A stretch of DNA of 33,617 nucleotides from an uncultured virus (IMG/VR IMGVR_UViG_2061766007_000680) (IMGVR_UViG_2061766007_000680); one strand, 5' to 3'. Counted from the first letter of the stretch, positions 5,296 through 33,617 are shown. Made by a program: numbers and translations. Notes: generated by a model from the letters alone, not told the origin.

Positions 5296-5889
5296 TTAAT
5301 AAAGTTTATTTACTGATTTAATACTGAAGTCTTCAGGTGAAGCGAAAATGGGCTCCTTGATTAACAGGGTGAGGAACTCTTCATACCCGTTGCAATAGTG
5401 GAATATCTTTTTGTCGAGTGCACTACCCTTTTTAATCCCTAAGTAATTACGTGTGGACAATGCAATTGTTACCACTTCAGTGTCCAATGGTTTCTGGACA
5501 AGGCACTCAGCGTAGTTGTATTTCTGGTCTACCTTAGGCATCTCAGGTTCAGGAACTACCTCCTCGCAATCTTCAAGCTCTAAGATATTCACATGAGTCA
5601 ATTTACGATAGATAGTCAGATATCTGTCCAACGTTTCTAAGAACTTCAGATACGTGCTAGACTCGATTACACTATCTCCACCCCATCCATCATTCCAGAC
5701 TCGTCCTATCCTCGTTATTTCAAGGAAGCCTTGTTCGGTGCTTTGGACATATAATTCGGCATTAAATGGTAGACTATCGTCATGTCTAAATGTTTCTACA
5801 ATTTTCTTAAGCGTAATCTTTAGATCCTTATTAATTTCGCATGTTATAGAGTCTTTCTCTTCAATGTTTTGCTTTTTAGTTCTTGCCAT
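5296..5889 (-). CDS. hypothetical protein
   Basis: 197 aa behind promoter 5913. Confidence 0.85.
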   Translation of the reverse strand: MARTKKQNIEEKDSITCEINKDLKITLKKIVETFRHDDSLPFNAELYVQSTEQGFLEITRIGRVWNDGWGGDSVIESSTYLKFLETLDRYLTIYRKLTHVNILELEDCEEVVPEPEMPKVDQKYNYAECLVQKPLDTEVVTIALSTRNYLGIKKGSALDKKIFHYCNGYEEFLTLLIKEPIFASPEDFSIKSVNKLY

Positions 5890-6032
5890 AGTATCTGAAT
5901 TTCAATTACGTTGCAAAAGTAGTAATTTTATTTTATATATAAAAATTTTAAAGAAAAAAAGTAATTATTTACTCCAAAATTTTTTTAATTCAATTATTTT
6001 CTTTTATTTGGCCATATAGGTGAGTAAATGGT

Positions 6033-6064
6033 AAAAAAAATGCGGGCAGACATTGCCACCCGCA
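6033..6064 (-). terminator. intrinsic terminator (GGCAG-family hairpin)
   Basis: TGCGGGCAGACATTGCCACCCGCA plus A8. Confidence 0.8.
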
Positions 6065-6089
6065 CCCAACTAAACAATTACCACTATGG

Positions 6090-6956
6090 TTACTCCGCCT
6101 TAGAGTAGGCGTTTTTCTTAATGTCGTCGAGGATTTCTGTGATAGTCATATCCTGGTTCAATTGTTCGAGAACCTTTCTAAGGCTAATCTCCGCCTCGAA
6201 CTTACCGTCAGGATTATTATACTGTTCAATATATTTAAACAGTGTACGCAGACCGAACTTGATGTTCTTACTGTCTTTGAAGATAATTGTACGGCTGTCT
6301 ATATCCAGGTTCTTCAGAGAAATCTTATTCGGGTCAGTTCCCTCATCAGACAGTTTCTTCTGAGCCTTAATAATCTCCTTGTATACAACATCCTCATTGT
6401 GATTGTTTGCCTGGAGCATTTTACGTACATCTACAGCGGTGATTACGCCGTCACGTATCAGAGCCTGGAGTTCTGGCTTCAACTCCAGTAACTGCAACCA
6501 GTAGGAAACCATGCCTGGATTTTTACCCAGTTTCCTGGCAATCTCAGATTTAGTTAGACCGCACTGGTCTTGTAACTTACGAGCTAACAGTCCCCACTCA
6601 TATTCATTGAAATTTTTACCCTCGTTACGAAGAGCTTGCTGTATCAATAGTTCCTCTTCTGTACAGCTCTTGGATAGGAACAACGCTGGAATACGCGCAA
6701 TCTCAGAACCCTCCTCAATGAGTTTCATCACAGCCCTGTAACGGCGTTCACCGTCAATCAGACGATACTTTTCCTCACCGTTTTCATCTTTGAATGCCTG
6801 TACAGATACTGGGTTCAGAACGCCCTGCTCTTTAATCTGACGAGCTAGTTCATCCAAGTCGCCGTAGTTACAACGAGAGTTAAAACCTTTTGTTACAACA
6901 ATGTTTCTTGGGTCTATCTTAAAGATATCCGTTTTTGTAGTCTTGTTATTTGCCAT
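6090..6956 (-). CDS. parB: ParB/RepB/Spo0J-family protein (ParB/Srx N-terminal domain plus HTH)
   Basis: LDELARQIKEQGVLNPVSV, YRLIDGERRYRA arginine patch, QALRN, HTH GLTKSEIARKLGKNPGMVSYWLQLL. Confidence 0.9.
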   Translation of the reverse strand: MANNKTTKTDIFKIDPRNIVVTKGFNSRCNYGDLDELARQIKEQGVLNPVSVQAFKDENGEEKYRLIDGERRYRAVMKLIEEGSEIARIPALFLSKSCTEEELLIQQALRNEGKNFNEYEWGLLARKLQDQCGLTKSEIARKLGKNPGMVSYWLQLLELKPELQALIRDGVITAVDVRKMLQANNHNEDVVYKEIIKAQKKLSDEGTDPNKISLKNLDIDSRTIIFKDSKNIKFGLRTLFKYIEQYNNPDGKFEAEISLRKVLEQLNQDMTITEILDDIKKNAYSKAE

Positions 6957-7821
6957 AGTGATTATTTTTATATTTTTTATTTAATTCTTCTTGACGTTGA
7001 TTATTTTTCATCTCATAATATTCTGGATAGTAGAAACCTTTGTGGTCATCTTTATCCTGGAACTGTCCAAAGTTTGAATGTTTGTTCAGGAACTTCACGA
7101 GTTTCATATCCTCAATTGAGTACCATACTGCTTTTGTACTGTCGTCTTCTACGTTCAGATACTCTACACCAGTTTCATAACGAGGCCATCTATTATCTCC
7201 ACAGTTAATTACTGGACGAGCTTTGACATACTTACGGAACCTGAAAGCGATGTATTTAATAATCATCTTATACAGTATTCCTACAATATGTGCCTCCCAG
7301 AAATTTTCTACTGGCTTCTGAATATCATAGTACCAGATTTCTCCAAACAGCCATTTCAGGAAGCCCTGACTGGTTTCTGACAGTCCATACTCTGCGATAC
7401 GACGATTATGTTTCAGGCGTAGAAGAGTGTCCATTTCCCTGAATACTGTGAAATCAACAGAGCAATAACTGTGCTGGTTCTTCTTGGTTACTACCAAAGG
7501 AAGTGTATCTGGTTCCTCGCCGTGTTTTACTGTGGATACATTGGAACGTGACGGCTTGAATTTATCAATCCAGTCAATCTTATCTCCGAAGAACTGTACG
7601 GTATATACTTTCTTTTCCGTGTCTTTAATAATCCACAGTCCGAACTTCCAGTACGGTATTTCTTTTATTTTGAAATGTACAACAGAGTTCTGTCCCAGGT
7701 CGAAAAGGAAATACCCATTACCAACTTGTACATCAGTAACAGTGAATCCATGTTCTTTCAGACACTGAAAGCACGCATCTTTAATTTTAGTCTTAGATAG
7801 TTTTCCTATTTTTAATGGCAT
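6946..7821 (-). CDS. hypothetical protein
   Basis: 291 aa, overlaps the parB start by 11 nt. Confidence 0.85.
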   Translation of the reverse strand: MPLKIGKLSKTKIKDACFQCLKEHGFTVTDVQVGNGYFLFDLGQNSVVHFKIKEIPYWKFGLWIIKDTEKKVYTVQFFGDKIDWIDKFKPSRSNVSTVKHGEEPDTLPLVVTKKNQHSYCSVDFTVFREMDTLLRLKHNRRIAEYGLSETSQGFLKWLFGEIWYYDIQKPVENFWEAHIVGILYKMIIKYIAFRFRKYVKARPVINCGDNRWPRYETGVEYLNVEDDSTKAVWYSIEDMKLVKFLNKHSNFGQFQDKDDHKGFYYPEYYEMKNNQRQEELNKKYKNNHYGK

Positions 7822-7840
7822 AATATTAATTGCTGTTAAT

Positions 7841-7862
7841 TATAGACCCAAATGAGTCTATA
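7841..7862. repeat. 22-bp palindromic motif, copy 3
   Basis: TATAGACCCAAATGAGTCTATA, the most symmetric copy. Confidence 0.9.
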
Positions 7863-7870
7863 TCTTTTTA

Positions 7871-8143
7871 CTATACCCTGATTTTAATAGTTAGTCCTTT
7901 TGCCTCACTATTTTTTGGCTCCACCTTTGGCTTTGGGTTGTTAGTGTCAAAGATTACATTACCGAGTTGGTCAATTACAAATATCTTGTATTGGAAACGA
8001 TTCCGTAACATTGTAATTATATTATTAACCTCATCCTCTTTAAATTGAAAGAGTTTAACACTAGTTGTCGAATAACCAAAATTATCACATGTGCTAACGT
8101 ATCTTGGGTTATCAACCGTTCCTAATCCTACACAATACATCAT
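7871..8143 (-). CDS. hypothetical protein
   Basis: 90 aa behind promoter 8172; ends TAG TAA. Confidence 0.8.
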   Translation of the reverse strand: MMYCVGLGTVDNPRYVSTCDNFGYSTTSVKLFQFKEDEVNNIITMLRNRFQYKIFVIDQLGNVIFDTNNPKPKVEPKNSEAKGLTIKIRV

Positions 8144-8223
8144 AAGTTTAATTCAATTTTTAAATCCGACTGCAAAGATACAAAAAATATTTTAAATGTA
8201 AAAATTTTAGAGAGATAAAATGT

Positions 8224-8260
8224 AAAAAAATTATGCGTGAGGGCTTTTACACCCCCACGC
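8224..8260 (-). terminator. intrinsic terminator
   Basis: GCGTGAGGG...CCCCCACGC stem with nearby A7. Confidence 0.65.
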
Positions 8261-8267
8261 CTTGCGA

Positions 8268-9035
8268 TTACCAACTCATTATGTTGTACACTACCTCTCC
8301 GTCTTTCCAATCTTCGAGGAGTTTCGTGAACTGCGCTTTGCAGTCTGCAATGTCCCCAAAGTAGTAGGCGTTGTAGTCTGTGCTACCGAAGAAGAAGCCT
8401 GCTTGTGTCGGCAGCAACTCTTCCGCCAAGTCTACCAATTCCTGCGGTATGGCAGCGTTCTCCTTATCTACACGCTCACGCTCTTTTTGCTGCTCCTCTT
8501 GCGTGAGGTCATAGAAATTGCTCTTGCAGTAGTACTTATCGTATGGACGACCGCTCTCGTCAAGTACACCTGCCTCCTTAGCAGCAGCCTCGATTTGCGT
8601 GCAGATATCTACCAATTCCTGCACCTTATCTTTGCTCACGATGCAGCACTCGTCTACGAGGTCATCAGCGAAGAAGCGATAGACGAAGTTAACCTTACGG
8701 AAGTATACATCGCTCTGCTTGTACATACTCTTTTTTAGGCGTTGGATTTCGTCCAATATGTCGCAGTTGAATGTCTCAGGTACGAGTTTTTCCCAATACC
8801 ATTTGTAATCAGGCATAAGGCTCTTCACGTACTCCCTGAGTTCGTTGATTACTGCTGCACGCTCCTCTGCGTTCTCGTCAGCAATTGCCTGCTTGATACG
8901 CTTAGCAAACTTGTTAGCCACTTTCGTGAATGCTTTCTTGAATTGCATTTCACGGTCTTTTTCCAACTCATCTACTGAGTTTGGATTTACACCTTTACTA
9001 GGTTTTACCTTGTCGAAGTAAATATCTAAGCCGAT
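8268..9035 (-). CDS. conserved phage hypothetical protein (MGLD.../GFFFGS family), probable ATC start
   Basis: Frame continues upstream of the track start to ATC-GGC-TTA-GAT-ATT-TAC-TTC (xGLDIYF); motifs FRKVN, LLPTQAGFFFGSTDY, terminal SW. Confidence 0.8.
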   Translation of the reverse strand: MGLDIYFDKVKPSKGVNPNSVDELEKDREMQFKKAFTKVANKFAKRIKQAIADENAEERAAVINELREYVKSLMPDYKWYWEKLVPETFNCDILDEIQRLKKSMYKQSDVYFRKVNFVYRFFADDLVDECCIVSKDKVQELVDICTQIEAAAKEAGVLDESGRPYDKYYCKSNFYDLTQEEQQKERERVDKENAAIPQELVDLAEELLPTQAGFFFGSTDYNAYYFGDIADCKAQFTKLLEDWKDGEVVYNIMSW

Positions 9036-9181
9036 AATTGTATCACGTTGTTTTCAACGTGCCTCCGTTTTTAATAGTTAATAAATATGTTATTTTGAAT
9101 TACAATGCAAAATTAATACAATTTTTTGATATATACAAATTTTTGGGCATTTTTTTTATTTTTTTCCTTATTATTATATAT

Positions 9182-9203
9182 TATAGACCCAAACGAGTAC
9201 CTA
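9182..9203. repeat. 22-bp palindromic motif, copy 4
   Basis: TATAGACCCAAACGAGTACCTA, 1 nt past the stop of 9205..9876. Confidence 0.8.
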
Positions 9204-9204
9204 A

Positions 9205-9876
9205 TTAGTGGTTAGGTTCGTTCTCCCATTTATCAATCAGGCTGTCCCAATCTGTCAGGTTAAATTCGTCATCTCGATAACAGGTGTTGCCTAAGAAGCC
9301 AAACAGGTTCTTCTCGAACACAGCGTCATCAATGTCTGTATCGTCGCCGTCCTGTTCGATACGGAACTTTGCTGCTTCAACGAATTTCTTTGCGAGGAAA
9401 TAGTCCAACTCCTCCTCAATATCCATTTCATTGAGATAGCTATCTACACCCTGCCAATCTACAATCTCCAATGCTGCATCTGTAATGTGGTCGATGAACT
9501 CATAATATAAGTCCAGCATTGCCTGGCTGTTCAAAATTACTTTTGTGCCGAAGCAGCCGAACTCATAGTTTTCAATATGACCTTTTACACAACTGCGTGC
9601 GCTGTCCCACGTTTCTACATATCCCCAATCAATCATTTTAGAGATAGTGTCTATAGTGATAATCAAATTTCCCTCCTTGTCTTTGATGAGTGTTTTGTCC
9701 TCACCAAGAAGGAAATTATTACCAAACGCACTCTCTGTAATATAACAGATACCTTTACGTTCCTTTATGGCTTTTTCGCTTTTATAGCAATAGCCATTGT
9801 TGGTAGAACCTGCCGAGAATACTGCTCCGCCCTCTATCGGGGTGCGAGAACCAACTTCGTAATACTTCTCGTCCAT
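9205..9876 (-). CDS. hypothetical acidic protein
   Basis: 223-aa ORF. Confidence 0.85.
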   Translation of the reverse strand: MDEKYYEVGSRTPIEGGAVFSAGSTNNGYCYKSEKAIKERKGICYITESAFGNNFLLGEDKTLIKDKEGNLIITIDTISKMIDWGYVETWDSARSCVKGHIENYEFGCFGTKVILNSQAMLDLYYEFIDHITDAALEIVDWQGVDSYLNEMDIEEELDYFLAKKFVEAAKFRIEQDGDDTDIDDAVFEKNLFGFLGNTCYRDDEFNLTDWDSLIDKWENEPNH

Positions 9877-9887
9877 AGTTTTTTTTA

Positions 9888-10058
9888 TTATTTTACCATT
9901 ATACCTAATTCAACGTGCTTGTCGTGGTCTTGCCACACGTTAACGCCTTTGTTGAAACCATATTTAATATGGTAATTGATTGCGTTACGCATTACACGTA
10001 AAAGCGTTTTGTCGTCCACTCTGCCCCAATTGGCAATGTCAATAGTGATTTGTGTCAT
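9888..10058 (-). CDS. small hypothetical protein (56 aa)
   Basis: Restarted at MTQITIDI; ATGA overlap with the upstream gene. Confidence 0.75.
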   Translation of the reverse strand: MTQITIDIANWGRVDDKTLLRVMRNAINYHIKYGFNKGVNVWQDHDKHVELGIMVK

Positions 10059-10207
10059 ACCAAGTCCTCCTCTACAAAGATTGCACATTTCTCAATCTGA
10101 GCCAACTCATTGGCTACAACTGCTGCTTGCGCTGCGCTAAGATTGCATTTTACAATTATAGGTGTTTCCCCTAATCGTTTAAGTGTTACGTGATACGTTC
10201 GTTTCAT
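10055..10207 (-). CDS. small hypothetical protein (50 aa)
   Basis: Restarted at MKRTYHV, downstream of promoter 10234. Confidence 0.75.
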   Translation of the reverse strand: MKRTYHVTLKRLGETPIIVKCNLSAAQAAVVANELAQIEKCAIFVEEDLV

Positions 10208-10364
10208 ATAGTTAGTTGTTTTTGAATTACGTTGCAAAGATAGTAAAAAAAAACCATACATACAAATTTTAGGGCAAAAAAATGTAAATTATTTTTAGTG
10301 AGTGATATATAGTCAAATAAAATAAAATTTATGGTTTATACAAATTTTGAGGAAATAAAAACAC

Positions 10365-10397
10365 AAAAAAACACGAGCAGCATTTCTGCCACCCGTG
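10365..10397 (-). terminator. intrinsic terminator (GGCAGAAATGC family)
   Basis: CACGAGCAGCATTTCTGCCACCCGTG plus A7. Confidence 0.8.
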
Positions 10398-10427
10398 CCA
10401 ACTAAACTATAAACTATGAACAAAACC

Positions 10428-10653
10428 CTACCAATTCAATGGAAACCAATAAAAGTTCTCCGTGTCGATACCGTCCTCGTTGAGATACCTAAATCAAGTC
10501 TCTACGGTATAAATCTCCGTTATGAACTAACACTCGTTAATCATCTTCATCTTCGCACTCTATTTCAGGATACCAATTATCCATATCTTCCTCGTTCAGT
10601 CTTGTAGTTCCATACTCAAAAACCTCACGTTCAAAATAAGAAAAATTTGCCAT
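10428..10653 (-). pseudogene. probable degraded gene (38-aa ORF 10537..10653 plus coding-like remnant)
   Basis: MANFSYFEREVF...CEDEDD*RVLVHNGDLYRRDLI, then a one-base shift to RYLNEDGIDTENFYWFPLNW*. Confidence 0.45.
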
Positions 10654-10654
10654 A

Positions 10655-10921
10655 TTACAAAACCTCTTTTTCTTCTATTTTCCAATCAATGTGATTGTAA
10701 AGATATTCACCCATTTCGTAAATAGACTTTGTGTTTTCCTCATCACATTCCGTCATAAGTCTGTCTGGGTCGCACCATTGTTCCCAATCGTTAAGTTCGG
10801 CAATAAACTCTGTTGCCATTGTTTTCTTTGCCTTTTCGAGGCTACCAAAAACTCTAACGTCTTCTGCGTTCTCTCCGCGTGTTGCACTTGTACGCAACAA
10901 TGTATAAACTTTTTTAGCCAT
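10655..10921 (-). CDS. hypothetical protein
   Basis: 88 aa behind promoter 10947. Confidence 0.85.
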   Translation of the reverse strand: MAKKVYTLLRTSATRGENAEDVRVFGSLEKAKKTMATEFIAELNDWEQWCDPDRLMTECDEENTKSIYEMGEYLYNHIDWKIEEKEVL

Positions 10922-10955
10922 AGTAGTATTTGTTTTTAATTGTACTGCAAAGATA

Positions 10956-11672
10956 CTATAAATTATCTATATATAAAAATTTTGGGGGAATAAAATGGCG
11001 GGTNNNNNNNNNNNNNNNNNNNNNNNNNNNNNNNNNNNNNNNNNNNNTTTCGTTTAATGTTTCATTAAGAAAATGGTCAAAGTTATCTTTGTATTTTTCC
11101 GATTTGTGTTTTGTTTCATTTATGATATTATTGAAACTACTGCAACTTTCATTGAAATAGTCATAAGGAATACTAAACTTATTATTTTTGTCAATAATAG
11201 TGTAAAAGTCAGTATCATCTTTCTTATTTTCGTAATAGTCTTTTCTTTCGATAAAAGCATAATCATTTTGATTAAATTCATAATAGTCAAAATGTACCAC
11301 ACCATTGTCTTTTATACCATAAATAAAACTTTCTTGTTGAAAAAGTTTAGCAATATGTTTTACCTCATCAAGCAAGATATTAAATATAATCTTACTATTT
11401 TCGGTATTTCCATATTTTCCTCTTACTGGTTGCCAAGCATAATTACCTTGTTTAAGATAATTAACAAGATTTTTGTTAGCAGTACGATTTTGGTTATTGC
11501 TACCCATTTCACCCATTGGGTTTTCACCTGTAATAATGCAAAATGTCTTTACATTATCTTCAACCCCCCTTATACTATTGATAGCACTTTGCTTTAATTG
11601 TCCTTTTTTGTTGCGAGAAATCTCGTCAAGTCTATTCATTAAATCTAATCCTTTCTCTAATTGTTCGTTCAT
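10956..11672 (-). CDS. DUF3293-like phage protein; true C-terminus hidden by N gap
   Basis: Motifs FCIITGENPMG, VRGKYGNTENS, IAKLFQQESFIYG. Confidence 0.7.
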   Translation of the reverse strand: MNEQLEKGLDLMNRLDEISRNKKGQLKQSAINSIRGVEDNVKTFCIITGENPMGEMGSNNQNRTANKNLVNYLKQGNYAWQPVRGKYGNTENSKIIFNILLDEVKHIAKLFQQESFIYGIKDNGVVHFDYYEFNQNDYAFIERKDYYENKKDDTDFYTIIDKNNKFSIPYDYFNESCSSFNNIINETKHKSEKYKDNFDHFLNETLNEXXXXXXXXXXXXXXXTRHFIPPKFLYIDNL

Positions 11673-11836
11673 AATCTTATTTAGTTTTTAATATATAAAT
11701 ACTTGAAAACTTTGTGCAAAGATAAAAGTTTTTCTACAAATATACAAATTTTAGGGAAAAAATCATTCATCATACTCGAAAATTTTTATATTCCGATTTT
11801 TTTCTTTTATTTGTGCATATAGAGATGAGGAGGACG

Positions 11837-11867
11837 AAAAAAAACAGGCGGCATCTCTGCCACCTGT
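11837..11867 (-). terminator. intrinsic terminator (GGCAGAGATGC family)
   Basis: ACAGGCGGCATCTCTGCCACCTGT plus A run. Confidence 0.85.
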
Positions 11868-11886
11868 CCCAACTAAAAACCAACTA

Positions 11887-12087
11887 TTATGAAACCAAGT
11901 CCAACTCTACAAGTCTGTTAAAGACCATATCGTAGAACTTTTCGATATATTCTTGGTCGTCAATGTCTTCATTGTTGAAGATATTTTCCAACTGCTCTTT
12001 ATCATCTTCGGTAAGGCACTCACCATACTTTGCGTCAACCTCAATCGGGTCAAGTTCGTAAAAATCTTGTTTACTAATCTTTTTCAT
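11887..12087 (-). CDS. small acidic hypothetical protein
   Basis: Restarted at MKKISKQDF (66 aa). Confidence 0.75.
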   Translation of the reverse strand: MKKISKQDFYELDPIEVDAKYGECLTEDDKEQLENIFNNEDIDDQEYIEKFYDMVFNRLVELDLVS

Positions 12088-12265
12088 TGTCGTAATAATT
12101 TGGTTCAACCTCTAAAATTTCTGCGGTTTTCCATACACACCGCGTAGGATAATTGTGGTTTCTCGCCCACCTCTCCGCTTGTCCTCTGGTGTCAAAGATT
12201 GCGTTTTTAATGGCTTCCATTTCTTTTGGATAGAAGACATTTACATATATTCCCCACTTTTTCAT
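12074..12265 (-). CDS. small hypothetical protein
   Basis: 63 aa. Confidence 0.75.
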   Translation of the reverse strand: MKKWGIYVNVFYPKEMEAIKNAIFDTRGQAERWARNHNYPTRCVWKTAEILEVEPNYYDNEKD

Positions 12266-12286
12266 AGCAACCTTATTTTTTAAATT

Positions 12287-12430
12287 TTAAAGTTTTATTT
12301 CGTCAATTAAACAACCGCACTCATCAAAGTATTGTATTGCTGATTTACTCTCATCAAATACAATTTGTTCTCCGTGAGTGAAAGTATCGAGCCACTCGTT
12401 TATTTTTTGTTTTGTGTTAGTTGATAACAT
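12287..12430 (-). CDS. small hypothetical protein (47 aa)
   Basis: MLSTNTKQKINEWLDTFTHGEQIVFDESKSAIQYFDECGCLIDEIKL*. Confidence 0.65.
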   Translation of the reverse strand: MLSTNTKQKINEWLDTFTHGEQIVFDESKSAIQYFDECGCLIDEIKL

Positions 12431-12440
12431 ATCCGTATAT

Positions 12441-12836: not shown

Positions 12837-12909
12837 AGTGATAATGTTTTTGATTTCTGCTACAAAAGTACTACAATTATTTCATATATAAAAATTTTGG
12901 AGAATAAAA

Positions 12910-13083
12910 TTATTCGGTTGTTATATCAGTTGTTTGATACTGAATGTTACAATCGTGGAAATTAGAATAAGCAGCCATTTCCCCAATAATGCCCTCAAAA
13001 GCATTTTTTTGAGAAACATTCACAATGCAGGACGCTATCTTGCGATTGTTCTTGTAGAACGTATATTTTACTTTTTTTCTCAT
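12910..13083 (-). CDS. small hypothetical protein (57 aa)
   Basis: MRKKVKYTFYKNNRKIASCIV...TTE*; ATGA overlap with 13080..13430. Confidence 0.7.
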   Translation of the reverse strand: MRKKVKYTFYKNNRKIASCIVNVSQKNAFEGIIGEMAAYSNFHDCNIQYQTTDITTE

Positions 13084-26218: not shown

Positions 26219-26305
26219 TGTTTTTAAATTTTAATTCTGGCACAAAGGTAATACAATTTTCTCACATATACAAATTTTAGAGAAAAAAAACACAATAATT
26301 TTAAC

Positions 26306-26476
26306 TTATATACCCATTTGAGTATATTTATGTTTTTTCTTTCTTGTATATTTCTTTTTATTGCGATAAACATTGCTATGGCATATCGGCTTACCAAATA
26401 AGGCAATCTCTATCTCCCTACTTTGTTTCCTTGCCGCTTTCAGTACTGCCAATATGTCATTTGCTTTACTACTCAT
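26306..26476 (-). CDS. small basic protein (56 aa) with an ArfA-like C-terminus
   Basis: MSNKANDILAVLKAARKQSREIEIALFGKPICHSNVYRNKKKYTRKKKHKYTQMGI*; start overlaps the upstream stop. Confidence 0.7.
   Translation of the reverse strand: MSSKANDILAVLKAARKQSREIEIALFGKPICHSNVYRNKKKYTRKKKHKYTQMGI
26307..26328. repeat. 22-bp palindromic motif, copy 8
   Basis: TATATACCCATTTGAGTATATT, forms the last codons and stop of 26306..26476. Confidence 0.8.
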
Positions 26477-26663
26477 CTTCGTATTCTATAATCTCGTATT
26501 TTCCCCACCTCAACTTTTTGCTTTGTGGCGTGTATTCTTTTTCGAGATTTAGTTGATGATTAAGTGATTTTAACCTTTCCTCAGCCTCTTTTTTATCGCG
26601 GTAAATCTCGCAGTAATTACAAACAAGAGGTGGGTTGCTATATACTATTTTATACTTTTTCAT
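26469..26663 (-). CDS. small hypothetical protein
   Basis: 64 aa, TAATG coupling to the upstream gene. Confidence 0.8.
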   Translation of the reverse strand: MKKYKIVYSNPPLVCNYCEIYRDKKEAEERLKSLNHQLNLEKEYTPQSKKLRWGKYEIIEYEDE

Positions 26664-26926
26664 TACTTAATCGGTTTAAGAGTAATACAATCCACATGTT
26701 TGTCATCGGCATACGTTACCACCTCATACGGCTTGCGCTTGAACATAACGTATTGACAATAAAAACGTGGGTAACTATCTAACGTATCGCCTTTCGTGGA
26801 AACTACCTTTTCCGCTTCTCCGTCAGTTACTAACAACTTGCCATAAGGCATTGTGTGGCGGTTTCCGAAATATGGAATAGTCCAAGACAATACTTTTTTA
26901 ATTCGAACTTTGTTGTTTTCGCTCAT
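26663..26926 (-). CDS. hypothetical protein
   Basis: 87 aa. Confidence 0.8.
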   Translation of the reverse strand: MSENNKVRIKKVLSWTIPYFGNRHTMPYGKLLVTDGEAEKVVSTKGDTLDSYPRFYCQYVMFKRKPYEVVTYADDKHVDCITLKPIK

Positions 26927-26940
26927 AGTTGTTTGTGTTT

Positions 26941-27162
26941 TTAATTATATTCTTTTGGTATGTAAATGTTCCATTTTGCAATGTATCTTTCGATAAAATC
27001 TTTTGGAAATTGACTTTCCCAACCACAACACGGACAAATAAATTGTTTCGTTCTGCGACCAAAGTATGTGCGGGGCATTTCCTTACAATTAGGATTACCG
27101 CAATAAGGCACATACCCTTGCTCATCCATAAGTTTTTGTCTCATCCAAGTTGTCTCTTCCAT
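26941..27162 (-). CDS. small zinc-ribbon protein
   Basis: PYCGNPNC...FICPCCGW. Confidence 0.85.
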   Translation of the reverse strand: MEETTWMRQKLMDEQGYVPYCGNPNCKEMPRTYFGRRTKQFICPCCGWESQFPKDFIERYIAKWNIYIPKEYN

Positions 27163-27308
27163 TGTGCTATTGTTTTAACTTCTACGGCAAAAGTACTACA
27201 TTTATTTGAAATATACAAATTTTAGAGAAAAAAAGTGTAATCCATCCCTAAAATTTTTATATATGGAAAATTAGTTTATATTTGGCTATATAGATGCGAA
27301 AAGGCAAC

Positions 27309-27346
27309 AAAAAACGGCAATATCTTTATTTATTGCCGCATTTTTG
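27309..27346. terminator. intrinsic terminator, possibly bidirectional
   Basis: A6-CGGCAATA...TATTGCCG-CA-T6. Confidence 0.75.
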
Positions 27347-27350
27347 ATTT

Positions 27351-27863
27351 TTACTCTCCTACCTCATCTACATCGGTATCTCCGTCTTCGGTCAAGTTAG
27401 ACAAGATTTGTTTCGTACACTCATCGCTCATTATCTCACTTTCTGCGAGTTCCAATGCCTCGTCTTCGTCCTCTGCCTCTACGCTCACCACTACTTGCGT
27501 GTGATAGTAAAAAGTCACATCGTACTTTTTCTTTTTCTTCTCCTTTGGTGCAAGAGGTTTCGGCTTTACAATCTTTCCGTGTTTCATACACACATCGGAA
27601 AAGCCGCAAGACATGTGCGGTAAGTCAAAAATACCACGATACTGCAAACATTGCTCTTTGTCATACACCGACAAGTCTGCTAACTTTGGGTAGGTGAGTT
27701 CCAATCTCATCGGCGAGTTTGGAAAGTTCTCCAGTTCCTCACAAGTCGGTGTTGCTACTGCGTGACCGTCTTCACAAGTGACTGTGTAACTGTGTTCCTC
27801 ATTATCACCGAATATCTTTTTGTCGGTGAGCAGCATTTCTTCTACAATTTTCTTTTTTGCCAT
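27351..27863 (-). CDS. hypothetical protein with a C-terminal DpnD/PcfM-like segment
   Basis: KKYDVTFYYHTQVVVSVEAEDEDEALELAE. Confidence 0.8.
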   Translation of the reverse strand: MAKKKIVEEMLLTDKKIFGDNEEHSYTVTCEDGHAVATPTCEELENFPNSPMRLELTYPKLADLSVYDKEQCLQYRGIFDLPHMSCGFSDVCMKHGKIVKPKPLAPKEKKKKKYDVTFYYHTQVVVSVEAEDEDEALELAESEIMSDECTKQILSNLTEDGDTDVDEVGE

Positions 27864-27889
27864 AGTGTTATAGTGTTTATGTATTTTGA

Positions 27890-28132
27890 TTAGTAATATA
27901 GTTTCTCATCAATCTGCTGCAAGATATTTTCCTTATCATCTAAAATGTTGCAGTCAATCTCACATACATATTGGTCAAAGTTATCACCAATATACACCTC
28001 ACAAAAATGCTCTTGTGTGGAATAGTTGAAACCTCCAACCAATTTTACCTCTCCAAAAGAGGTGTTGATAATGCGGTGTTTCGGTTTTCTACCACATATA
28101 TCTTTAATCATTTCTTCTCTTGTTTGTGCCAT
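27890..28132 (-). CDS. hypothetical protein
   Basis: Restarted at MAQTREE behind promoter 28153. Confidence 0.8.
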   Translation of the reverse strand: MAQTREEMIKDICGRKPKHRIINTSFGEVKLVGGFNYSTQEHFCEVYIGDNFDQYVCEIDCNILDDKENILQQIDEKLYY

Positions 28133-28273
28133 AGTTTTATTTGATTTGTACTGCAAAAGTACTACATTTTTCCCAATTATACAAATTTTGGAGAAAAAAA
28201 ATGCAATTACAACCTAAAATTTTTATATCTCACGGAATATGTTATATTTGGCTATATACTACACAAAAGGCAC

Positions 28274-28301
28274 AAAAAAAATAGCCGAACTTAATCGGCT
28301 A
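28274..28301 (-). terminator. intrinsic terminator
   Basis: TAGCCGA-ACTTAA-TCGGCTA plus A8; same inner stem-loop as 22810. Confidence 0.8.
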
Positions 28302-28305
28302 CCTT

Positions 28306-28536
28306 TTAGTAAATCATTTGCTTAACCAATCGGTTGGCAATCTTGTATGCTGCGTGCAGTTTCTCCGTTCCTGTCAATCCTCGTAATTCTTCTGCGTGAA
28401 TTACAAAGTTGTCAATCTCATACTGCAAATTCTCATCTTCGTATATTTGGCAGAAATACCCACCTTTGTTTATTCCGTTGTCATCGCAGAAAGATACATA
28501 TACTTTCTTGCGGTCATTTATTTTTACTGATAGCAT
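28306..28536 (-). CDS. hypothetical protein
   Basis: 76 aa, NKGGYFCQIY. Confidence 0.8.
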   Translation of the reverse strand: MLSVKINDRKKVYVSFCDDNGINKGGYFCQIYEDENLQYEIDNFVIHAEELRGLTGTEKLHAAYKIANRLVKQMIY

Positions 28537-28558
28537 ATTATTCCTTTCTTTAATAATT

Positions 28559-28580
28559 TATATACCCATTTGAGGCTATA
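28559..28580. repeat. 22-bp palindromic motif, copy 9
   Basis: TATATACCCATTTGAGGCTATA, 2 nt past the stop of 28583..29128. Confidence 0.8.
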
Positions 28581-28582
28581 TA

Positions 28583-29128
28583 TTACCAAACCATTGCTGC
28601 TCGTTTGGAATAGTGACTATCGTTCCAAATCTTTTCCAAAATCTGATACTCTTTCAAATCTGCGTATCGTGTGCGGTATTGAAAGTTCCAATTGTCATAG
28701 AGTTGGAAACCTTTCTCGGTCACAATCTTAATGTAGAACAAATTAGTTCCGTCATGGTGACTGCTCTTTACCTCAACCAAACCACGCGGCAGTTGCTTAA
28801 CTCGGATGTGGTCGCAGTCTTTAATGCAAGCGGTCAGTGCTTCCACGATATTGTCGAACATTTTTGCACACTCAAAGTTGCCCTGCCAAGTTCCTGCGGT
28901 GCCGCTTACTATAACTCGGTTGTCACCGAATATCTCCTCATCTTCAAGATAGTTCTTGCAGTTGTCGAAATCTTCCGACTCCATATCTGCAATAGACTGC
29001 CATACATCATCATCGGTGATTTTGCAATCTGGGTTGCACTCTTGCAATGCTGCCTTTTCTTCCTCAAAATCGTATCCGTCATAATTGTCGAATAAGATAA
29101 TGTCTTGCTTTTTAGTTTTCTTTGCCAT
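28583..29128 (-). CDS. conserved phage hypothetical protein (GTWQG...HHDGTN type)
   Basis: Restarted at MAKKTKK behind promoter 29154. Confidence 0.85.
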   Translation of the reverse strand: MAKKTKKQDIILFDNYDGYDFEEEKAALQECNPDCKITDDDVWQSIADMESEDFDNCKNYLEDEEIFGDNRVIVSGTAGTWQGNFECAKMFDNIVEALTACIKDCDHIRVKQLPRGLVEVKSSHHDGTNLFYIKIVTEKGFQLYDNWNFQYRTRYADLKEYQILEKIWNDSHYSKRAAMVW

Positions 29129-29242
29129 AGTTCTATTTGATTTTGTTTCTGCTGCAAAGGTAATATAAAAAAATGATATATACAAATTTTGAGGAGAAAA
29201 TGTTAATTTTATTTGTTTTGCAATATAGAGTTAGCAAAACAT

Positions 29243-29527
29243 TTATTCGAGGAAAATCCACTTGTTAGCAAGTTCACTTATTTGGTCGTTATTCGCTACT
29301 TCTTCATATGGTAGTTCAACTGACACAAAATCTTCTACATCATAGATATTGTCATTGTTTGGCTCAATATCATCGTCTATGATTTCAACTTTGTGAACCA
29401 TTTCGTACTCATCCAACCAAATATGCAGGCGAGGATTGGTATATGCTTTCTTGTTAGCGATGTATTCTTCTACTGCATCATATATTGCGGTTTCTAACGC
29501 ACGTAATGCTTGAAGGTAATTACTCAT
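29243..29527 (-). CDS. hypothetical protein, paralog of 23791..24072
   Basis: 94 aa; IYDAV...ISELANKWIFLE. Confidence 0.85.
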   Translation of the reverse strand: MSNYLQALRALETAIYDAVEEYIANKKAYTNPRLHIWLDEYEMVHKVEIIDDDIEPNNDNIYDVEDFVSVELPYEEVANNDQISELANKWIFLE

Positions 29528-29660
29528 ATCCGTATTGTTTTTAATGTTTCTGCTGCAAAAGTACTAAAAAGATTTCAATTATACAAATTTTGGAGAAAAA
29601 AATGAAAAAATTTTTATTATATATAATATATAGAATATAACGCAATAGACCCTATTTATT

Positions 29661-29732
29661 TCAATTCTAAGACACTTTATCATCAAATACGATAACTTTA
29701 TCATCTAAACAAAAATATGCGCTTAAAACGAA
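29661..29732. repeat. symmetric non-coding element
   Basis: Central GATAA-CT-TTATC, direct repeat ACTTTATCATC (29674, 29695), symmetric TAAG/CTTA outer arms. Confidence 0.5.
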
Positions 29733-29884
29733 GATTTTGAAAAAAATGTTGTTTTTCGTCACTTTTTTAACTTTATTGACAATTTACAATGGTAAAAAAG
29801 ATCCAGAAACACACAGAAAAAGATCTTATAGACAAATAAAAGAAAAATCTCCAATTATACAAATTTTGGGGAACAAATATACAC

Positions 29885-29914
29885 AAAAAAACGCCAACTC
29901 ATAAAGAGTCGGTG
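29885..29914 (-). terminator. intrinsic terminator
   Basis: CGCCAACTC-ATAAA-GAGTCGGTG plus A7. Confidence 0.75.
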
Positions 29915-30290
29915 CTAAAAATATATATTATATGAAAGAATTATAACTTATAAATTACTTGCGCATAGTTTTGTCCTCCGTTTAATGGTTCCACAATACA
30001 CTATAAAAATTTCCGAATAATTAATTAACTAATATGTTAGTGGGTCTGCGCCCTAATACGATTTGTAGCCATAGCCTATTCATTTTTATTTGTGCCCTAT
30101 GGTAGCCGCGCCGAGTGTAATTCGCCAACCTCTGACGCGATTTAACAACTACCTAAATGTTGCGGGCGATAATGCCAAAATTTCTATTTTCCTAATTGGA
30201 CAATTTATAACTATTTATTTTTATATTATTTATACCCTAATTGGGCGGTGGTTTATTGTTCTCCATAATTCCGTCTAAATTTTAATTACA
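29885..30290 (-). other. promoter- and terminator-bounded unit of about 400 nt without a standard-code gene
   Basis: Promoter 30293; mini-ORFs MENNKPPPN*, MATNRIRAQTH*, MRK*; an 81-codon frame 30021..30266 broken only by three TAGs. Confidence 0.6.
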
Positions 30291-30347
30291 ATGCAAAAGT
30301 ACTACAAATTTTTGACTTATACAATTTTTGGGGAAGAAAAATGCAAT

Positions 30348-30740
30348 TTATTTATCGTGCACCTCTTTATGGACGCTTTCGGTATGTTTCTCTAACCGAG
30401 CAGTGAGTTCGTCAAGATAAGCGTTGGTCAATTTCACTAACTTGTCGGGCGTTTCAAGTATGTCTTCGTGATTTTCAACATACTGAATTGTCTTGTCAGC
30501 CGCATAAATAATAACCGCATCTTTGGTCGATGGTGTTGCGATACCGATAAGCGCACCAATGATTGCAAAAGGCAATGCACCTTTCAAAATTTTTGTTACT
30601 GCGGCTCTCTCTTTGTCGTCATAGAAAAAGACGCAATAAAGAATTGCGGTAATAAGAATCACGGTGATAGCAAGCCCAAACACTACCCAAGAAAAATTGT
30701 TAATCGCGTCTAAACGCGTGATAAGATAAAATCCGAACAT
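30348..30740 (-). CDS. membrane protein (two TM helices plus helical tail)
   Basis: 130 aa, YLITRLD...PSTKD. Confidence 0.85.
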   Translation of the reverse strand: MFGFYLITRLDAINNFSWVVFGLAITVILITAILYCVFFYDDKERAAVTKILKGALPFAIIGALIGIATPSTKDAVIIYAADKTIQYVENHEDILETPDKLVKLTNAYLDELTARLEKHTESVHKEVHDK

Positions 30741-30822
30741 AACTATTAAGTTTTTTAATTTTACAATGTAAAAGTACTACATTTATTTCAATTATACAAA
30801 TTTTTGGGAATAAAAATGTGAT

Positions 30823-31074
30823 TTATTTTCTTTTCAATGCTTTCTCTATTGTCTTTTCGTACACATTTGCCAAAATTGCTTGTTGTACCTCATATTCAAA
30901 ATCAGCAGTCTGCTTGAAAAAACCTGTGCGTTGAAAGTCCCATATACCAGAATTTTTTGCAATCAGATTGATTTGCTTAATGTGCTCTCGCAGTTCCTTA
31001 AGATTTTTACTTGATAGGTGATTTAACACCCACTCTGAACTGCGCTTTTTTGCTTGCCATAATTCTCTTGCCAT
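30823..31074 (-). CDS. hypothetical protein
   Basis: Restarted at MARELWQ behind promoter 31101. Confidence 0.8.
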   Translation of the reverse strand: MARELWQAKKRSSEWVLNHLSSKNLKELREHIKQINLIAKNSGIWDFQRTGFFKQTADFEYEVQQAILANVYEKTIEKALKRK

Positions 31075-31120
31075 AGTGTTATTTGTTTTTGATTTCTGTT
31101 GCAAAGGTACAACAAAGTTT
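31071..31120. repeat. perfect 50-bp repeat (promoter -7 box, leader and ATG), copy 1
   Basis: Identical to 33568-33617. Confidence 0.95.
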
Positions 31121-31145
31121 TTAATTATACAAATTTTGGGGAAAA

Positions 31146-31472
31146 TTAGTAATTAAAAACACATCTTTTTTTGTTGTAGCATTTCATTAACTCCTTGCTC
31201 ATGTGCTTACGATTTCGGTACGGAATAGTTGCAACGCGTTTGCCTTTCTCAACAACATACACCTTAACATTGGTATATTTGTAGTCGTTTAAGTCGAGGA
31301 TGCAAGCCAATTCCTCTGCACGGAGTTGTGCCTTTCTCTGCGACCGATATGTTTCAATCGGTTCGGGATAGGTAACACGCTGACCATATTTGTACTGAAT
31401 AGGATACCCTGCATACCATTTTACGGGTATATTCTCATAAGATACACTTTCGTAATAAACTTGATACTGCAT
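31146..31472 (-). CDS. hypothetical protein
   Basis: 108 aa. Confidence 0.8.
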   Translation of the reverse strand: MQYQVYYESVSYENIPVKWYAGYPIQYKYGQRVTYPEPIETYRSQRKAQLRAEELACILDLNDYKYTNVKVYVVEKGKRVATIPYRNRKHMSKELMKCYNKKRCVFNY

Positions 31473-31486
31473 AGTTTGTTTTCTTT

Positions 31487-31741
31487 TTAATCACCATAAT
31501 AAGGTTCATTGAATGAATAATCAAATTCATCAATATAGCCAATTCTTCTTTGCCTATTTATTTCCTCATCATATTCCAATTGTTTTACTAACATTTTTTG
31601 CACCTCGTTTGATAATATAAAAGTTGGTATGTTCCACATACACCACTCAATATATTGCGCATCTTTAAGTAACACTTTGCTTATCTTTTCCCCTTTGTGC
31701 TTACCAAAATCTAATATGTCATCTAATCTTAATTCTTTCAT
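31487..31741 (-). CDS. exodeoxyribonuclease-X C-terminal-like (FGKHKG) small protein
   Basis: LDFGKHKGEKISKVLLKDAQYIEWC. Confidence 0.75.
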   Translation of the reverse strand: MKELRLDDILDFGKHKGEKISKVLLKDAQYIEWCMWNIPTFILSNEVQKMLVKQLEYDEEINRQRRIGYIDEFDYSFNEPYYGD

Positions 31742-31879
31742 TTCTCATTGATTCTTGCGCAAAAATAAAACATTTATTTGAATAATAAAAATTTTCAAGC
31801 AAAAAAATAATTTAACCCCTCAAAATTTTTATATACCAAAACTTTTCTTTTATTTGTCCATATATATGCGCAAAGACAC

Positions 31880-31912
31880 AAAAAAACAAGCGACTTTCCC
31901 AAGTCACTTGTC
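31880..31912 (-). terminator. intrinsic terminator
   Basis: ACAAGCGACTT-TCCC-AAGTCACTTGT plus A run. Confidence 0.8.
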
Positions 31913-31974
31913 CCAATTGTCTAACGTCTAAACCTTAACTATGATTTACTTTCGCATAACTAAACCCTTTCTTT

Positions 31975-32319
31975 TTAATTGAACAACTTGTCTGCCATTT
32001 CGCCAATCTTATCAAACGAGCAAGTGTTATTGCTACCACCTCGCCAATCTTCTGCGTGTGCCATTGTACGAATAAGAATATCATCGTACCAATCCCAATA
32101 GCGCACGTCACTCATATGCACATACACGAACTTGCCGCCTTTCTCTAATACCGCTGACCACTCAAAGTGATTGCCCAAAAACTTGTGTATCTTAATACCA
32201 AATTTCCTACATTGTGCCGCCAACTCCTTTTTACATTGACGTTCAAACGTAATGTATTCCATTGTACGATAATAATTGCTTTCAAACTCTTGATTACGAT
32301 AACTTTTTACGCTTGCCAT
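31975..32319 (-). CDS. conserved phage hypothetical protein (SDVRY...LIRT...DWRGGSN type)
   Basis: Restarted at MASVKSY behind promoter 32346. Confidence 0.85.
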   Translation of the reverse strand: MASVKSYRNQEFESNYYRTMEYITFERQCKKELAAQCRKFGIKIHKFLGNHFEWSAVLEKGGKFVYVHMSDVRYWDWYDDILIRTMAHAEDWRGGSNNTCSFDKIGEMADKLFN

Positions 32320-32394
32320 AATGTTTAGTTTTTTAATTTGATACTGCAAAGATACTACTTTTAATCCAAATATAAAAATTTTGGAGAATAATAA

Positions 32395-32655
32395 TTAAAG
32401 TCCAAATTTTTCAATTACTATTCCTACAATCTCATTTACCTTTCGCACATCTGGGTGTATGTTTTTGTAAAAGTTTCTGCTGATGTAGTGGCGGAATTTA
32501 AGTCTTAATTCGTTATCTTCCGTTTCTACTGCAAGACATTGAATCAGTCTTCCTTTATGTGTAATACCAAAATCTGCAATAGACAAAACTCCGCCCATTT
32601 CATTTACAAACTCTTTTACTTTTTTTACACCACTAATATTTAATCTTGTTGCCAT
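32395..32655 (-). CDS. hypothetical protein
   Basis: 86 aa behind promoter 32681. Confidence 0.8.
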   Translation of the reverse strand: MATRLNISGVKKVKEFVNEMGGVLSIADFGITHKGRLIQCLAVETEDNELRLKFRHYISRNFYKNIHPDVRKVNEIVGIVIEKFGL

Positions 32656-32729
32656 AGTTCTATTCTTTATTGTTTCTAATGCAAAAATACTGCTTTTATT
32701 CGGTATATAAAAATTTTAAGGGAATAAAA

Positions 32730-33146
32730 TTATTTACCTATCTCACCAATAACAAAATTATCGTATTTCCTAACATCGGTACCAATTATTCTATTACCAC
32801 TTTTTAAATCGTTTTGCCGTGAATACAACATATCTAACGACTTGAATTTTTCTACGGCAGGATAAGTGTGTACATTTTCAACTCCGTTCTCGCTTACAAC
32901 AGCGTGTCTATCATACGATAGCGTATATTTGAAATACTTGTCTTTGTTTGCTTTTGTTATAATCTCCTTAAACCAACCACCACAATCGGTATCACGAATA
33001 ATAACTTTGCTGACACCATCGTGCATATTGAACATATCAGCACCCATTTGAACCGCACTTGCAGGATGCGTCATCGACATACAATCATAACCATAAAACG
33101 GAACATTGCTTTTGTCATCGGAATATACCTCAATTCTTAATTTCAT
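32730..33146 (-). CDS. hypothetical protein
   Basis: 138 aa behind promoter 33170. Confidence 0.85.
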   Translation of the reverse strand: MKLRIEVYSDDKSNVPFYGYDCMSMTHPASAVQMGADMFNMHDGVSKVIIRDTDCGGWFKEIITKANKDKYFKYTLSYDRHAVVSENGVENVHTYPAVEKFKSLDMLYSRQNDLKSGNRIIGTDVRKYDNFVIGEIGK

Positions 33147-33325
33147 AATTGCTATTTTTTAATTACAATGCAAATGTACTATAATTTTTTCATATATAAA
33201 AATTTTAGAGTAAAAAAATAAAATCACTCCCCAAAATTTTTATATCTCGCAAACTTTGCTATTTTAGGATATATATAGGACTACCTACGACAGCCCCCCC
33301 ATAACCCCCTNNNNNNNNNNTTTAT

Positions 33326-33571
33326 TTACACATAAGAGCGAACAATCTCCAAAAGTTCATACATCGGCTGACCGCCATCGGGTTCAGTTTCCTCTACAAG
33401 AACATGCACAAAGTTTTTTTCTACGAACCCGAATTGGACGACAGCAACTTTCTCTTTCAGTTTCTCCGATTTCTCTACTACGATGCCAACTGCTGTTTCG
33501 TTGTCATAATTACTAACTTTTACGATACTGCCGACTTTAACGTCTGCAAATTTAACATTTCCGTATTCCAT
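33326..33571 (-). CDS. small beta-rich (SH3/KOW-like) hypothetical protein
   Basis: Restarted at MEYGNVK; VKVGSIVKV...GIVVEK. Confidence 0.75.
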   Translation of the reverse strand: MEYGNVKFADVKVGSIVKVSNYDNETAVGIVVEKSEKLKEKVAVVQFGFVEKNFVHVLVEETEPDGGQPMYELLEIVRSYV

Positions 33572-33617
33572 AGTGTTATTTGTTTTTGATTTCTGTTGCA
33601 AAGGTACAACAAAGTTT
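33568..33617. repeat. perfect 50-bp repeat, copy 2 (runs to window end)
   Basis: Identical to 31071-31120. Confidence 0.95.

Follow-up and report, generated by a model that had tools for sequence, protein, structure and literature searches.

The 33,617-nucleotide stretch of DNA from the uncultured virus IMGVR_UViG_2061766007_000680 (the window, by which we mean the whole stretch that was analysed) contains a site-poor island at 9001..33617 on the minus strand, in which nine pooled short words occur at 0-7 sites per kb and which continues past the window's right end. The depletion is real, is restricted to a single region and extends to many short palindromes when their counts are set against expectation; it is independent of codon usage, is sharply bounded, depends on position and is conserved in diverged relatives. 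By analogy with the first-step-transfer (FST) region of phage T5, we lean, with slightly better than even confidence, to the reading that the island is the DNA that would be exposed first to host restriction.

The depletion had been proposed in a sequence-only reading of the window, which listed 15 GATC sites on the left and 4 in 5827-33617, where about 70 were expected. An exact count returned identical positions: of 19 GATC sites in the window, 15 lie in 1-5826 (113, 438, 774, 1952, 2495, 2633, 2742, 3103, 3166, 4040, 4318, 4495, 4876, 5162 and 5823) and four lie in 5827-33617 (21242, 21263, 29800 and 29822), for which the left-hand density predicts 71.6. A trinucleotide Markov model gave an expectation of 51.5 sites for the same interval and shuffling of synonymous codons gave 53.0 ± 5.8, with none of 500 shuffles as low as the observed 4. 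The loss of GGCC and AGCT that the same reading suspected after about 7-9.5 kb was borne out as well, the final GGCC lying at 7184 and the final AGCT at 9438. The final CTAG is at 8998, CATG is rare beyond, and CCGG has zero copies across all 33,617 bases.

In 9501-33617 the Markov model predicted 42 GATC, 34 AGCT, 35 CTAG, 21 GGCC, 29 CCGG and 60 CATG, against 4, 0, 0, 0, 0 and 10 observed, with z-scores of -4.6 to -6.4. When the 136 strand-merged 4-mers were ranked by depletion over this interval, palindromes made up six of the seven most depleted (CATG, CTAG, GATC, AGCT, CCGG and GGCC). Codon usage was controlled with 500 synonymous-codon shuffles among the predicted genes, in which protein sequences and codon usage were kept. 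The shuffles averaged 42.1 ± 5.2 GATC, 51.0 AGCT, 19.2 CTAG, 13.8 GGCC, 14.7 CCGG and 50.6 CATG, and the observed count of each of the six words fell below every one of them. Codon usage and composition are therefore without power to explain the purge. The purge is also selective. GTAC, GCGC, CGCG and TGCA were normal in the codon shuffle and ACGT and TCGA just mildly low; GTAC, ACGT, GCGC, CGCG, TGCA, AATT and TTAA escape the purge. The abundance of TGCA and GTAC in the island arises because both words sit within the promoter consensus described below. In 1-5826, observed and shuffled counts were 15 and 17.8 for GATC, 1 and 10.9 for AGCT, and 0 and 2.7 for CCGG.

We give next to no weight to chance, to codon or dinucleotide bias, or to a chimeric assembly as the cause of the depletion. 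The G+C content (guanine plus cytosine) of the island is somewhat above that of the left flank and its strand bias differs too, as a compositional cause might predict, but the shuffles and Markov scores above reject the bias that the sequence-only reading had itself raised as an alternative. As to a chimera, the independently assembled 121,233-bp relative G001 shows the same junction order over the edge, and its colinearity with the window rules chimeric assembly out. Paralogy among the cassette genes that fill the island was also considered and ruled out as a cause: the 52 predicted cassette proteins yielded just 2 weak paralogue pairs and, being essentially unrelated, offer no explanation for the purge.

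Along the window, the nine pooled words run at 18-25 per kb up to 8 kb, fall to 11 in 8-9 kb and average about 3 per kb from 9 kb to the end. The left segment, 1..5826, has the character of bulk phage DNA: GATC, GGCC and CTAG stand at normal levels, AGCT and CCGG are avoided, and the segment is colinear with G001 33345-28727. Between it and the island lies a transitional zone on the minus strand, 5827..9000, which holds the parB operon; it is without GATC while GGCC, CTAG, CATG, AGCT, ACNGT and TCNGA are normal or high. The boundary had been placed near the parB operon, and the inner edge of the island does adjoin that operon; however, position 5827 is an edge for GATC alone, and the general purge begins at about 9.0 kb, upstream of the operon. 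The GATC-only gap extends through the operon to 5.8 kb, and the homologous segment of G001, at about 25-28.5 kb, holds one GATC (26710).

The surrounding genome was reconstructed in part from relatives. Neither close nor remote DNA matches to the window turned up among GenBank phages, and a ParB search, with a single sequence or a two-sequence alignment, led to one IMG/VR relative only, G001, whose ParB is 80% identical to that of the window. Overall order is the same in the two, with a mosaic of 66-96% DNA identity and a gene content and order that are likewise mosaic. Two further contigs join G001 by their ends: the right end of G004 equals the left end of G001 (132 bp, 99.2%), and the right end of G001 equals the reversed right end of G003 (127 bp, 100%), giving a joined G004-G001-G003 of 276 kb. 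CheckV completeness values of 32%, 25% and 19% for these contigs put the genome at roughly 340-380 kb, of which, at an estimated 370 kb, the island makes up about 6.7%. G003 and G004 encode a portal, a gp23-type major head protein, a prohead protease and a baseplate wedge; these core genes are tied by the end overlaps to G001, the relative of the window. Members of the T4 superfamily supply the closest matches to the major head protein, whose identity to them does not exceed 39%. No match to Terminase_6C, the large terminase domain, was found in the 276 kb of G001, G003 and G004, and a 275-amino-acid match to phrog_2 was rejected as a terminase, being only a weak ATPase-like fragment. The phage origin assumed in the sequence-only reading agrees with these contigs, and the metagenome runs that contain the window sequence are labelled bovine gut metagenome. 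We take the window to belong to a jumbo phage of rumen Bacteroidota, a member of the T4 superfamily with a genome of roughly 370 kb.

The same island is present in G001. The first 25 kb hold 4 GATC, 4 GGCC, 2 CTAG and 9 CATG, compared with 148, 139, 98 and 305 in the whole contig, and the remaining 96 kb has ordinary word densities in 5-kb bins. The G001 island is about 24.7 kb long and its inner edge falls at a position homologous to that of the window, within the same gene (window 8157-9150 aligns with G001 25143-24162). On the merged G004-G001 map, the density of the nine island-specific words is 7-20 per kb outside, up to the junction; between about 350 and 25,000 it falls to 0-7 per kb, or about 2.7, after which it rises to 15-29 per kb. 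Within the island the density is flat, without a gradient, in both the window and G001. The 155 kb of G003 and G004 show ordinary densities throughout, and no second island was found in the 276 kb of linked contigs.

The outer edge in G001 lies just ahead of the first array promoter (530-640), past a terminator and a G-rich noncoding stretch. This stretch, G001 100-330, carries a nine-G run and repeated GTAGG between the terminator and the promoter, and the G004 contig terminates at its poly-G run. None of the other loci yielded a copy. The stretch may serve as a packaging or end site, as an origin or as an array to which proteins bind. In the window, the last 50 bases (33568-33617) are an exact repeat of 31071-31120, and the contig therefore probably ends at an assembly break in repeats; with the 24.7-kb island of G001 as a guide, its right end should be near the outer edge of the island. 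Runs of N occur at 11004-11047 and 33311-33320.

To widen the word set, the two islands were pooled (window 9501-33617 plus G001 1-22000, 46,117 bp) and set against 250,954 bp of bulk sequence. All six 4-mers, GATC, AGCT, CTAG, GGCC, CCGG and CATG, are depleted in the pooled islands, and two of them are avoided everywhere: bulk AGCT stands at 28 against 373 expected and bulk CCGG at 0 against 175. Both are near zero in the islands too and are depleted genome-wide, CCGG being zero and AGCT rare in each of G001, G003 and G004. GATC is about twofold low in the bulk (357 against 708 expected). Among interrupted palindromes, observed and expected counts in the window island, the G001 island and the bulk were 12/51, 13/41 and 669/680 for ACNGT; 11/47, 5/54 and 577/628 for GANTC; 10/37, 6/34 and 314/421 for CTNAG; 0/11, 2/10 and 144/166 for GGNCC; and 32/59, 19/47 and 667/694 for TCNGA. 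Three 6-mers are low in the pooled islands as well (ATTAAT, 4 against 35 expected; AATATT, 6 against 26; CATATG, 4 against 23). The purge is broader than the sequence-only reading described and takes in at least 11 island words: GATC, CATG, CTAG, GGCC, GANTC, CTNAG, ACNGT, GGNCC, TCNGA, ATTAAT, AATATT and CATATG. The non-palindromic ACAG/CTGT is about 2.5-fold low in the pooled islands (77 against 196, compared with 1367 against 1443 in the bulk), a shortfall that exceeds what ACNGT accounts for, and GTCTC, CCTTC and CCATC are also low there; asymmetric, Type IIS-like sites may be avoided in the islands as well.

A wider sample came from a scan of metagenomes with the promoter pattern, which returned at least 125 stretches, of which 79 loci, all found by that pattern, were examined. 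The purge words occur at no more than 1 site per kb in 10 of these loci, at 2.3 in one and at 6.4-22.5 in the other 68. Nine of the 10 site-poor loci match portions of the island of the window or of G001 at 65-91% identity and, by this similarity, are relatives, not independent lineages. Since these relatives have diverged to 65-91% identity and are still site-free, selection must be continuing; otherwise sites would have reappeared.

The island is built as an array: at least 30 cassettes, each a promoter plus small genes, are all transcribed leftwards, and nearly all genes to the right of 3.7 kb are on the minus strand. A 74-nt repeat (promoter families D1-D5) stands upstream of most small genes. 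Its minus-strand consensus is ...CCCCAAAATTTGTATA, about 15 nt, then GTAcyTTTGCA, which reduces to the boxes TTTG, about 20 nt, TAnnTTTGCA on the minus strand, as in the example at 17167..17240 on that strand. A pattern search returned 34 rows, equal to 33 distinct promoters, 30 of them at or beyond 9,000. The primary sigma factor of Bacteroides, sigma-ABfr, is described in excerpts of PMC7366714 as having the consensus -33 TTTG and -7 TAnnTTTG. The cassette promoters match this -33/-7 consensus and by sequence are of Bacteroidota type. Each promoter drives one or two small genes, often followed by a terminator hairpin. The hairpins of repeat family D17 are intrinsic terminators, exemplified at 10365..10414 on the minus strand, with further copies at 11836-11885, 14889-14938, 18914-18963 and 24858-24907; a terminator scan of the minus strand found those at 10399-10370 and 11870-11841.

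Promoters of this type also occur outside the islands, and they separate the effect of position from that of promoter identity. Over the 800 bp downstream, 53 island promoters are followed by 3.16 sites per kb and 23 outside the islands by 19.84 sites per kb. As a cassette promoter outside the island drives site-rich DNA, the purge signal depends on position. Promoter or cassette status is insufficient to account for it, which weakens accounts that appeal solely to early transcription or to the mobility of cassettes and favours a physical explanation in terms of a contiguous domain. This position dependence is the strongest support, although indirect, for the interpretation in the sequence-only reading that the array meets host restriction before a phage-encoded protection acts.

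One account that does without regional selection holds that the cassettes were shuffled among phages at promoter-terminator repeats and brought their composition from elsewhere. We regard such a legacy of mobility as quite improbable. It would fit the mosaic gene content and order between the window and G001, and the array resembles the promoter-stem-loop (PeSL) cassettes of T4-type hyperplastic regions, as described in portions of PMC4122927. A compositional difference exists too, in that GCGC and CGCG reach 2-3 times their bulk density in the islands (for the window, about 1.3 per kb against 0.4). However, the cost of a site would be equal anywhere in the virion, and mobility alone gives no regional selection; moreover, 52 unrelated genes are purged alike, the edges are sharp with the inner one at a homologous position in both genomes, and the cassette-type promoters outside the island stand in site-rich DNA.

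A second account keeps selection and discards the order of entry. In it, the whole genome would enter at once and selection would act on the early module alone: an uncut island would express takeover or anti-defence proteins even though the rest is cleaved, weakening the cell for co-infecting kin, or alternatively the bulk would be shielded by co-injected proteins while the island lies bare for transcription. The T4-type capsid suggests headful packaging, G004 encodes a protein that carries a DarB-like antirestriction domain and has matches to virion-protein families as well, and the island is packed with host-type promoters, all of which would suit selection on island integrity. Nevertheless, genes with the same promoter outside the island are unpurged, so early transcription is insufficient, and a benefit to kin needs frequent co-infection; we consider this account unlikely.

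In the reading that we favour, that of an island exposed first, the island would meet host restriction enzymes as naked DNA, being delivered or exposed before the rest. Host RNA polymerase would transcribe it at once, and its products would neutralise host defences. The site-rich remainder would become vulnerable only afterwards, and would probably be in part methylated by phage Dam-type and CcrM-type enzymes. Early expression, first entry and a protective role for island products are inferences in this reading, and the promoter consensus is established at the level of sequence.

Several results weigh against first exposure. T5 has a large noncoding stop region, and none like it was found at the inner edge, where the intergenic space 8966-9205 is 240 bp with an ordinary cassette promoter and no minus-strand terminator occurs at 9.0-9.2 kb. 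The capsid is T4-type, and packaging could therefore be of the headful kind, which in T4 itself leaves the ends random. According to parts of PMC12455610, leading-region avoidance should not apply to headful phages. The assembly also crosses the outer edge into ordinary DNA through the 132-bp contig overlap, which fits terminal repeats or permutation. Searches of the island genes with Pfam and PHROGs, and with a protein atlas for one of them, recovered no known anti-restriction family, and no anti-restriction gene, for which the sequence-only reading had proposed to look, was recognized among the cassettes. Finally, if phage enzymes already methylate virion DNA, the need for a site-free leader becomes less obvious.

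T4-superfamily ancestry leads one to expect headful packaging from a random end, in contrast to a sharply bounded 25-kb island. Speculatively, a pac-initiated headful series running from the outer edge would leave the island last-packaged and first-injected. More broadly, and only tentatively, the island may reflect either an undescribed oriented or staged delivery in the T4 superfamily or selection on early-module integrity alone. Oriented delivery would require that the leading end be fixed or lie close to pac, the G-rich outer-edge stretch being a candidate packaging or end site, whereas selection for integrity would act on the early module independently of the survival of the infecting genome. 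If this is true, injection polarity and the restriction repertoire of the host would be readable from island-versus-bulk profiles in metagenomic phage contigs.

The phage's own methyltransferases bear on both the favoured reading and a further alternative. The search for a Dam-like methyltransferase that the sequence-only reading suggested yielded one in the relative: G001 39924-40790 encodes a Dam-family protein (TIGR00571, 262.2 bits against a cut-off of 114.85; Pfam D12 class, 5.7e-53) for which M.DpnII 1, the closest, and E. coli Dam are the best homologues of solved structure. By this homology it is a putative GATC methyltransferase. G001 further encodes a CcrM-like PF01555 enzyme and an EcoRI-type methylase beside a GmrSD/HNH protein, and with a further D12-class enzyme the 276 kb hold four methyltransferases (Dam-family, CcrM-like, EcoRI-type and D12-class). 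Pfam recovered none within the window itself, and no cytosine-5 methyltransferase, as would be needed for GGCC, was found in five contigs. Two modules accompany these enzymes. The first, in G004 (L066 6304-9401), combines a GHKL ATPase, a weak EcoRI-endonuclease-like protein (21.9 bits, just below the cut-off of 22) and a D12-class methyltransferase; in the second, in G001 (L012 16366-18602), the EcoRI-type methylase adjoins the GmrSD_N/HNH protein. From their domain content they look like the phage's own restriction-modification.

Given such enzymes, the bulk words could be modified by the phage and shed by the island as harmful, either as targets of modification-dependent nucleases or through regulatory interference. 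The usual targets of Dam and CcrM are GATC and GANTC, both of which are island-specific words here, if the usual specificities hold; beyond the four methyltransferases of the linked contigs, it also speaks for such self-methylation avoidance that the island keeps GATC almost solely as pairs beside a promoter-like element. On the other hand, four enzymes in 276 kb cannot cover at least nine island-specific words, which weakens this account, and the window itself is without a methyltransferase. Methylated bulk DNA would moreover be equally exposed to modification-dependent nucleases unless entry were staged, which returns one to first exposure. We judge self-methylation avoidance distinctly unlikely, though not to the degree of the mobility account.

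The residual GATC sites deserve description in their own right. The only ones left in the window island form two pairs, at 21242..21266 (21 bp apart) and 29800..29825 (22 bp apart). The first stands immediately 3' of another promoter-like element, TTTTATTTGTCTATA, and the second lies 3' of the same element in the opposite orientation. The G001 island carries a third pair in the same setting (7871/7892; 7871-7895) plus a single site at 23305. With a Dam-family enzyme in the relative, the arrangement looks like a methylation-sensitive switch, although it occurs in three copies only. The element itself (families D9/D12/D16; for example 22724-22787 on the plus strand and 24811-24874 on the minus strand) has an AAAATTT(G/T)TATA box in common with the cassette promoter and ends in TTTTATTTGTCTATATA; it often stands back to back with a cassette promoter, pointing into the upstream terminator hairpin. 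It could be a promoter for one of the two phage sigma factors encoded in G003, or a source of short antisense RNAs.

Few products in the window could be named. Pfam and PHROGs recognized only the ParB-like protein, a GP88-family protein and an ExoX-like C-terminal motif. The parB-like gene lies at 6090..6956 on the minus strand (Pfam HTH_ParB 8e-11 and ParB_N 1e-9; phrog_1033 6e-37), with a TIGR00180 score of 74 bits against a cut-off of 58.45, and the GP88-family gene (PF17338, Pfam 2e-18) at 14011..14820 on the same strand. The parB operon has a G+C content of 0.37-0.42, the highest in the window, and all seven AGCT sites of the window fall within 5576-9438, in or beside the operon, six of them assigned to the transitional zone and 5576 being just outside. 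Compositionally it looks distinct from both island and bulk, and it may be a later acquisition. Five island proteins, encoded at 11887-12108, 13627-13953, 15962-16210, 18174-18434 and 29243-29527, are very acidic (isoelectric point about 4.05-4.10, 22-27% aspartate plus glutamate) and by analogy could be DNA-mimic restriction inhibitors; a protein-atlas search with one small acidic island protein matched unnamed clusters only.

Beyond its island, G001 encodes in 36-100 kb a set for salvage of nicotinamide adenine dinucleotide (NAD), namely NAD synthase, nicotinate phosphoribosyltransferase and an isochorismatase-family protein, together with RtcB with a cyclic-phosphate receiver domain, an ADP-ribosyltransferase, Hsp70 and GrpE, and two nucleoside 2-deoxyribosyltransferase-like proteins. 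On domain content, this gene set is likely devoted to counter-defence and repair.

Taken with the genome-wide avoidance of CCGG and AGCT, the island suggests a two-tier defence in which two words are avoided everywhere and at least nine only in the island, with methyltransferases for the remainder. Should the island be the first-exposed DNA, the leading end and immediate-early gene set of uncultured phages could be located from sequence, the purged words would list the restriction specificities relevant in the host population, and the approximately 50 small unknown genes would be prime candidates for new anti-defence functions. A literature search for GATC enzymes of rumen Prevotella yielded a single general review on nucleases, and we assign none of the avoided words to a named host enzyme.

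We found no description in the open-access literature of a comparable island in a jumbo or T4-type phage, and the closest parallels come from other systems. T5-like phages (tequintaviruses) are restricted only when sites fall in the FST region, as stated in passages of PMC10644984, and T5 is described in excerpts of the literature as transferring about 8% of its genome in the first step. Like the island, the FST region of T5 and BF23 is a minority segment of small, mostly unknown genes, there under host promoters and here under promoters that match a host consensus; in T5 sites matter only inside the segment, and in both cases the rest of the genome carries sites. T5, however, is a siphovirus whose FST lies in a 10-kb terminal repeat with a large noncoding stop region, whereas the island here is 25 kb, is linked to a T4-type capsid, has no such noncoding region that we found and is known from its sequence alone. 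In Murciavirus (Autographiviridae), a Type I system takes effect solely by way of motifs located in the first-injected region, and in the leading region of this family, T7 included, restriction pressure likewise falls on a variable, anti-defence-rich early region (both in passages of PMC12455610). There, one Type I motif is at issue in podoviruses of 40 kb, and the effect was established by experiment; ours, read from sequence, concerns at least 11 Type II-like words in a jumbo myovirus.

The PeSL cassettes resemble the array in having promoter and terminator repeats between small variable genes, in gene content that is mosaic between relatives and in T4-superfamily core genes. As to PeSL-type recombination or mini-circle exchange at the repeats, the observation here is a rearranged gene order between the window and G001. 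Unlike the cassettes in those portions of PMC4122927, the island forms a single 25-kb block with promoters of Bacteroidota consensus, not sigma-70; site avoidance is absent from the passages of that paper that were available, and 'restriction' occurs once in its main text. Flavobacterium phage immuto, a cultured T4-type phage of which 50 kb was examined, carries genes for 7-deazaguanine DNA modification, a different strategy. The takeover module in the terminal redundancy of SPO1, a Bacillus phage of an unrelated family, likewise gathers small early genes under strong host promoters in one block. In conjugative plasmids, the leading region, as cited in parts of PMC12455610, is first-entering DNA that is depleted of restriction targets and rich in anti-defence genes, but there the DNA enters single-stranded and the element here is a tailed phage. 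Collectively, leading-region restriction avoidance is a kind already known. Four features make the variant described here new: its carrier, an uncultured jumbo phage of the T4 superfamily from rumen Bacteroidota; the loss of at least 11 words from one promoter-cassette array of 25 kb with sharp bounds; a superimposed, genome-wide avoidance of CCGG and AGCT; and the presence of phage-encoded methyltransferases. A logic known by experiment in T5-like and T7-like phages would thereby be found in a different virus lineage.

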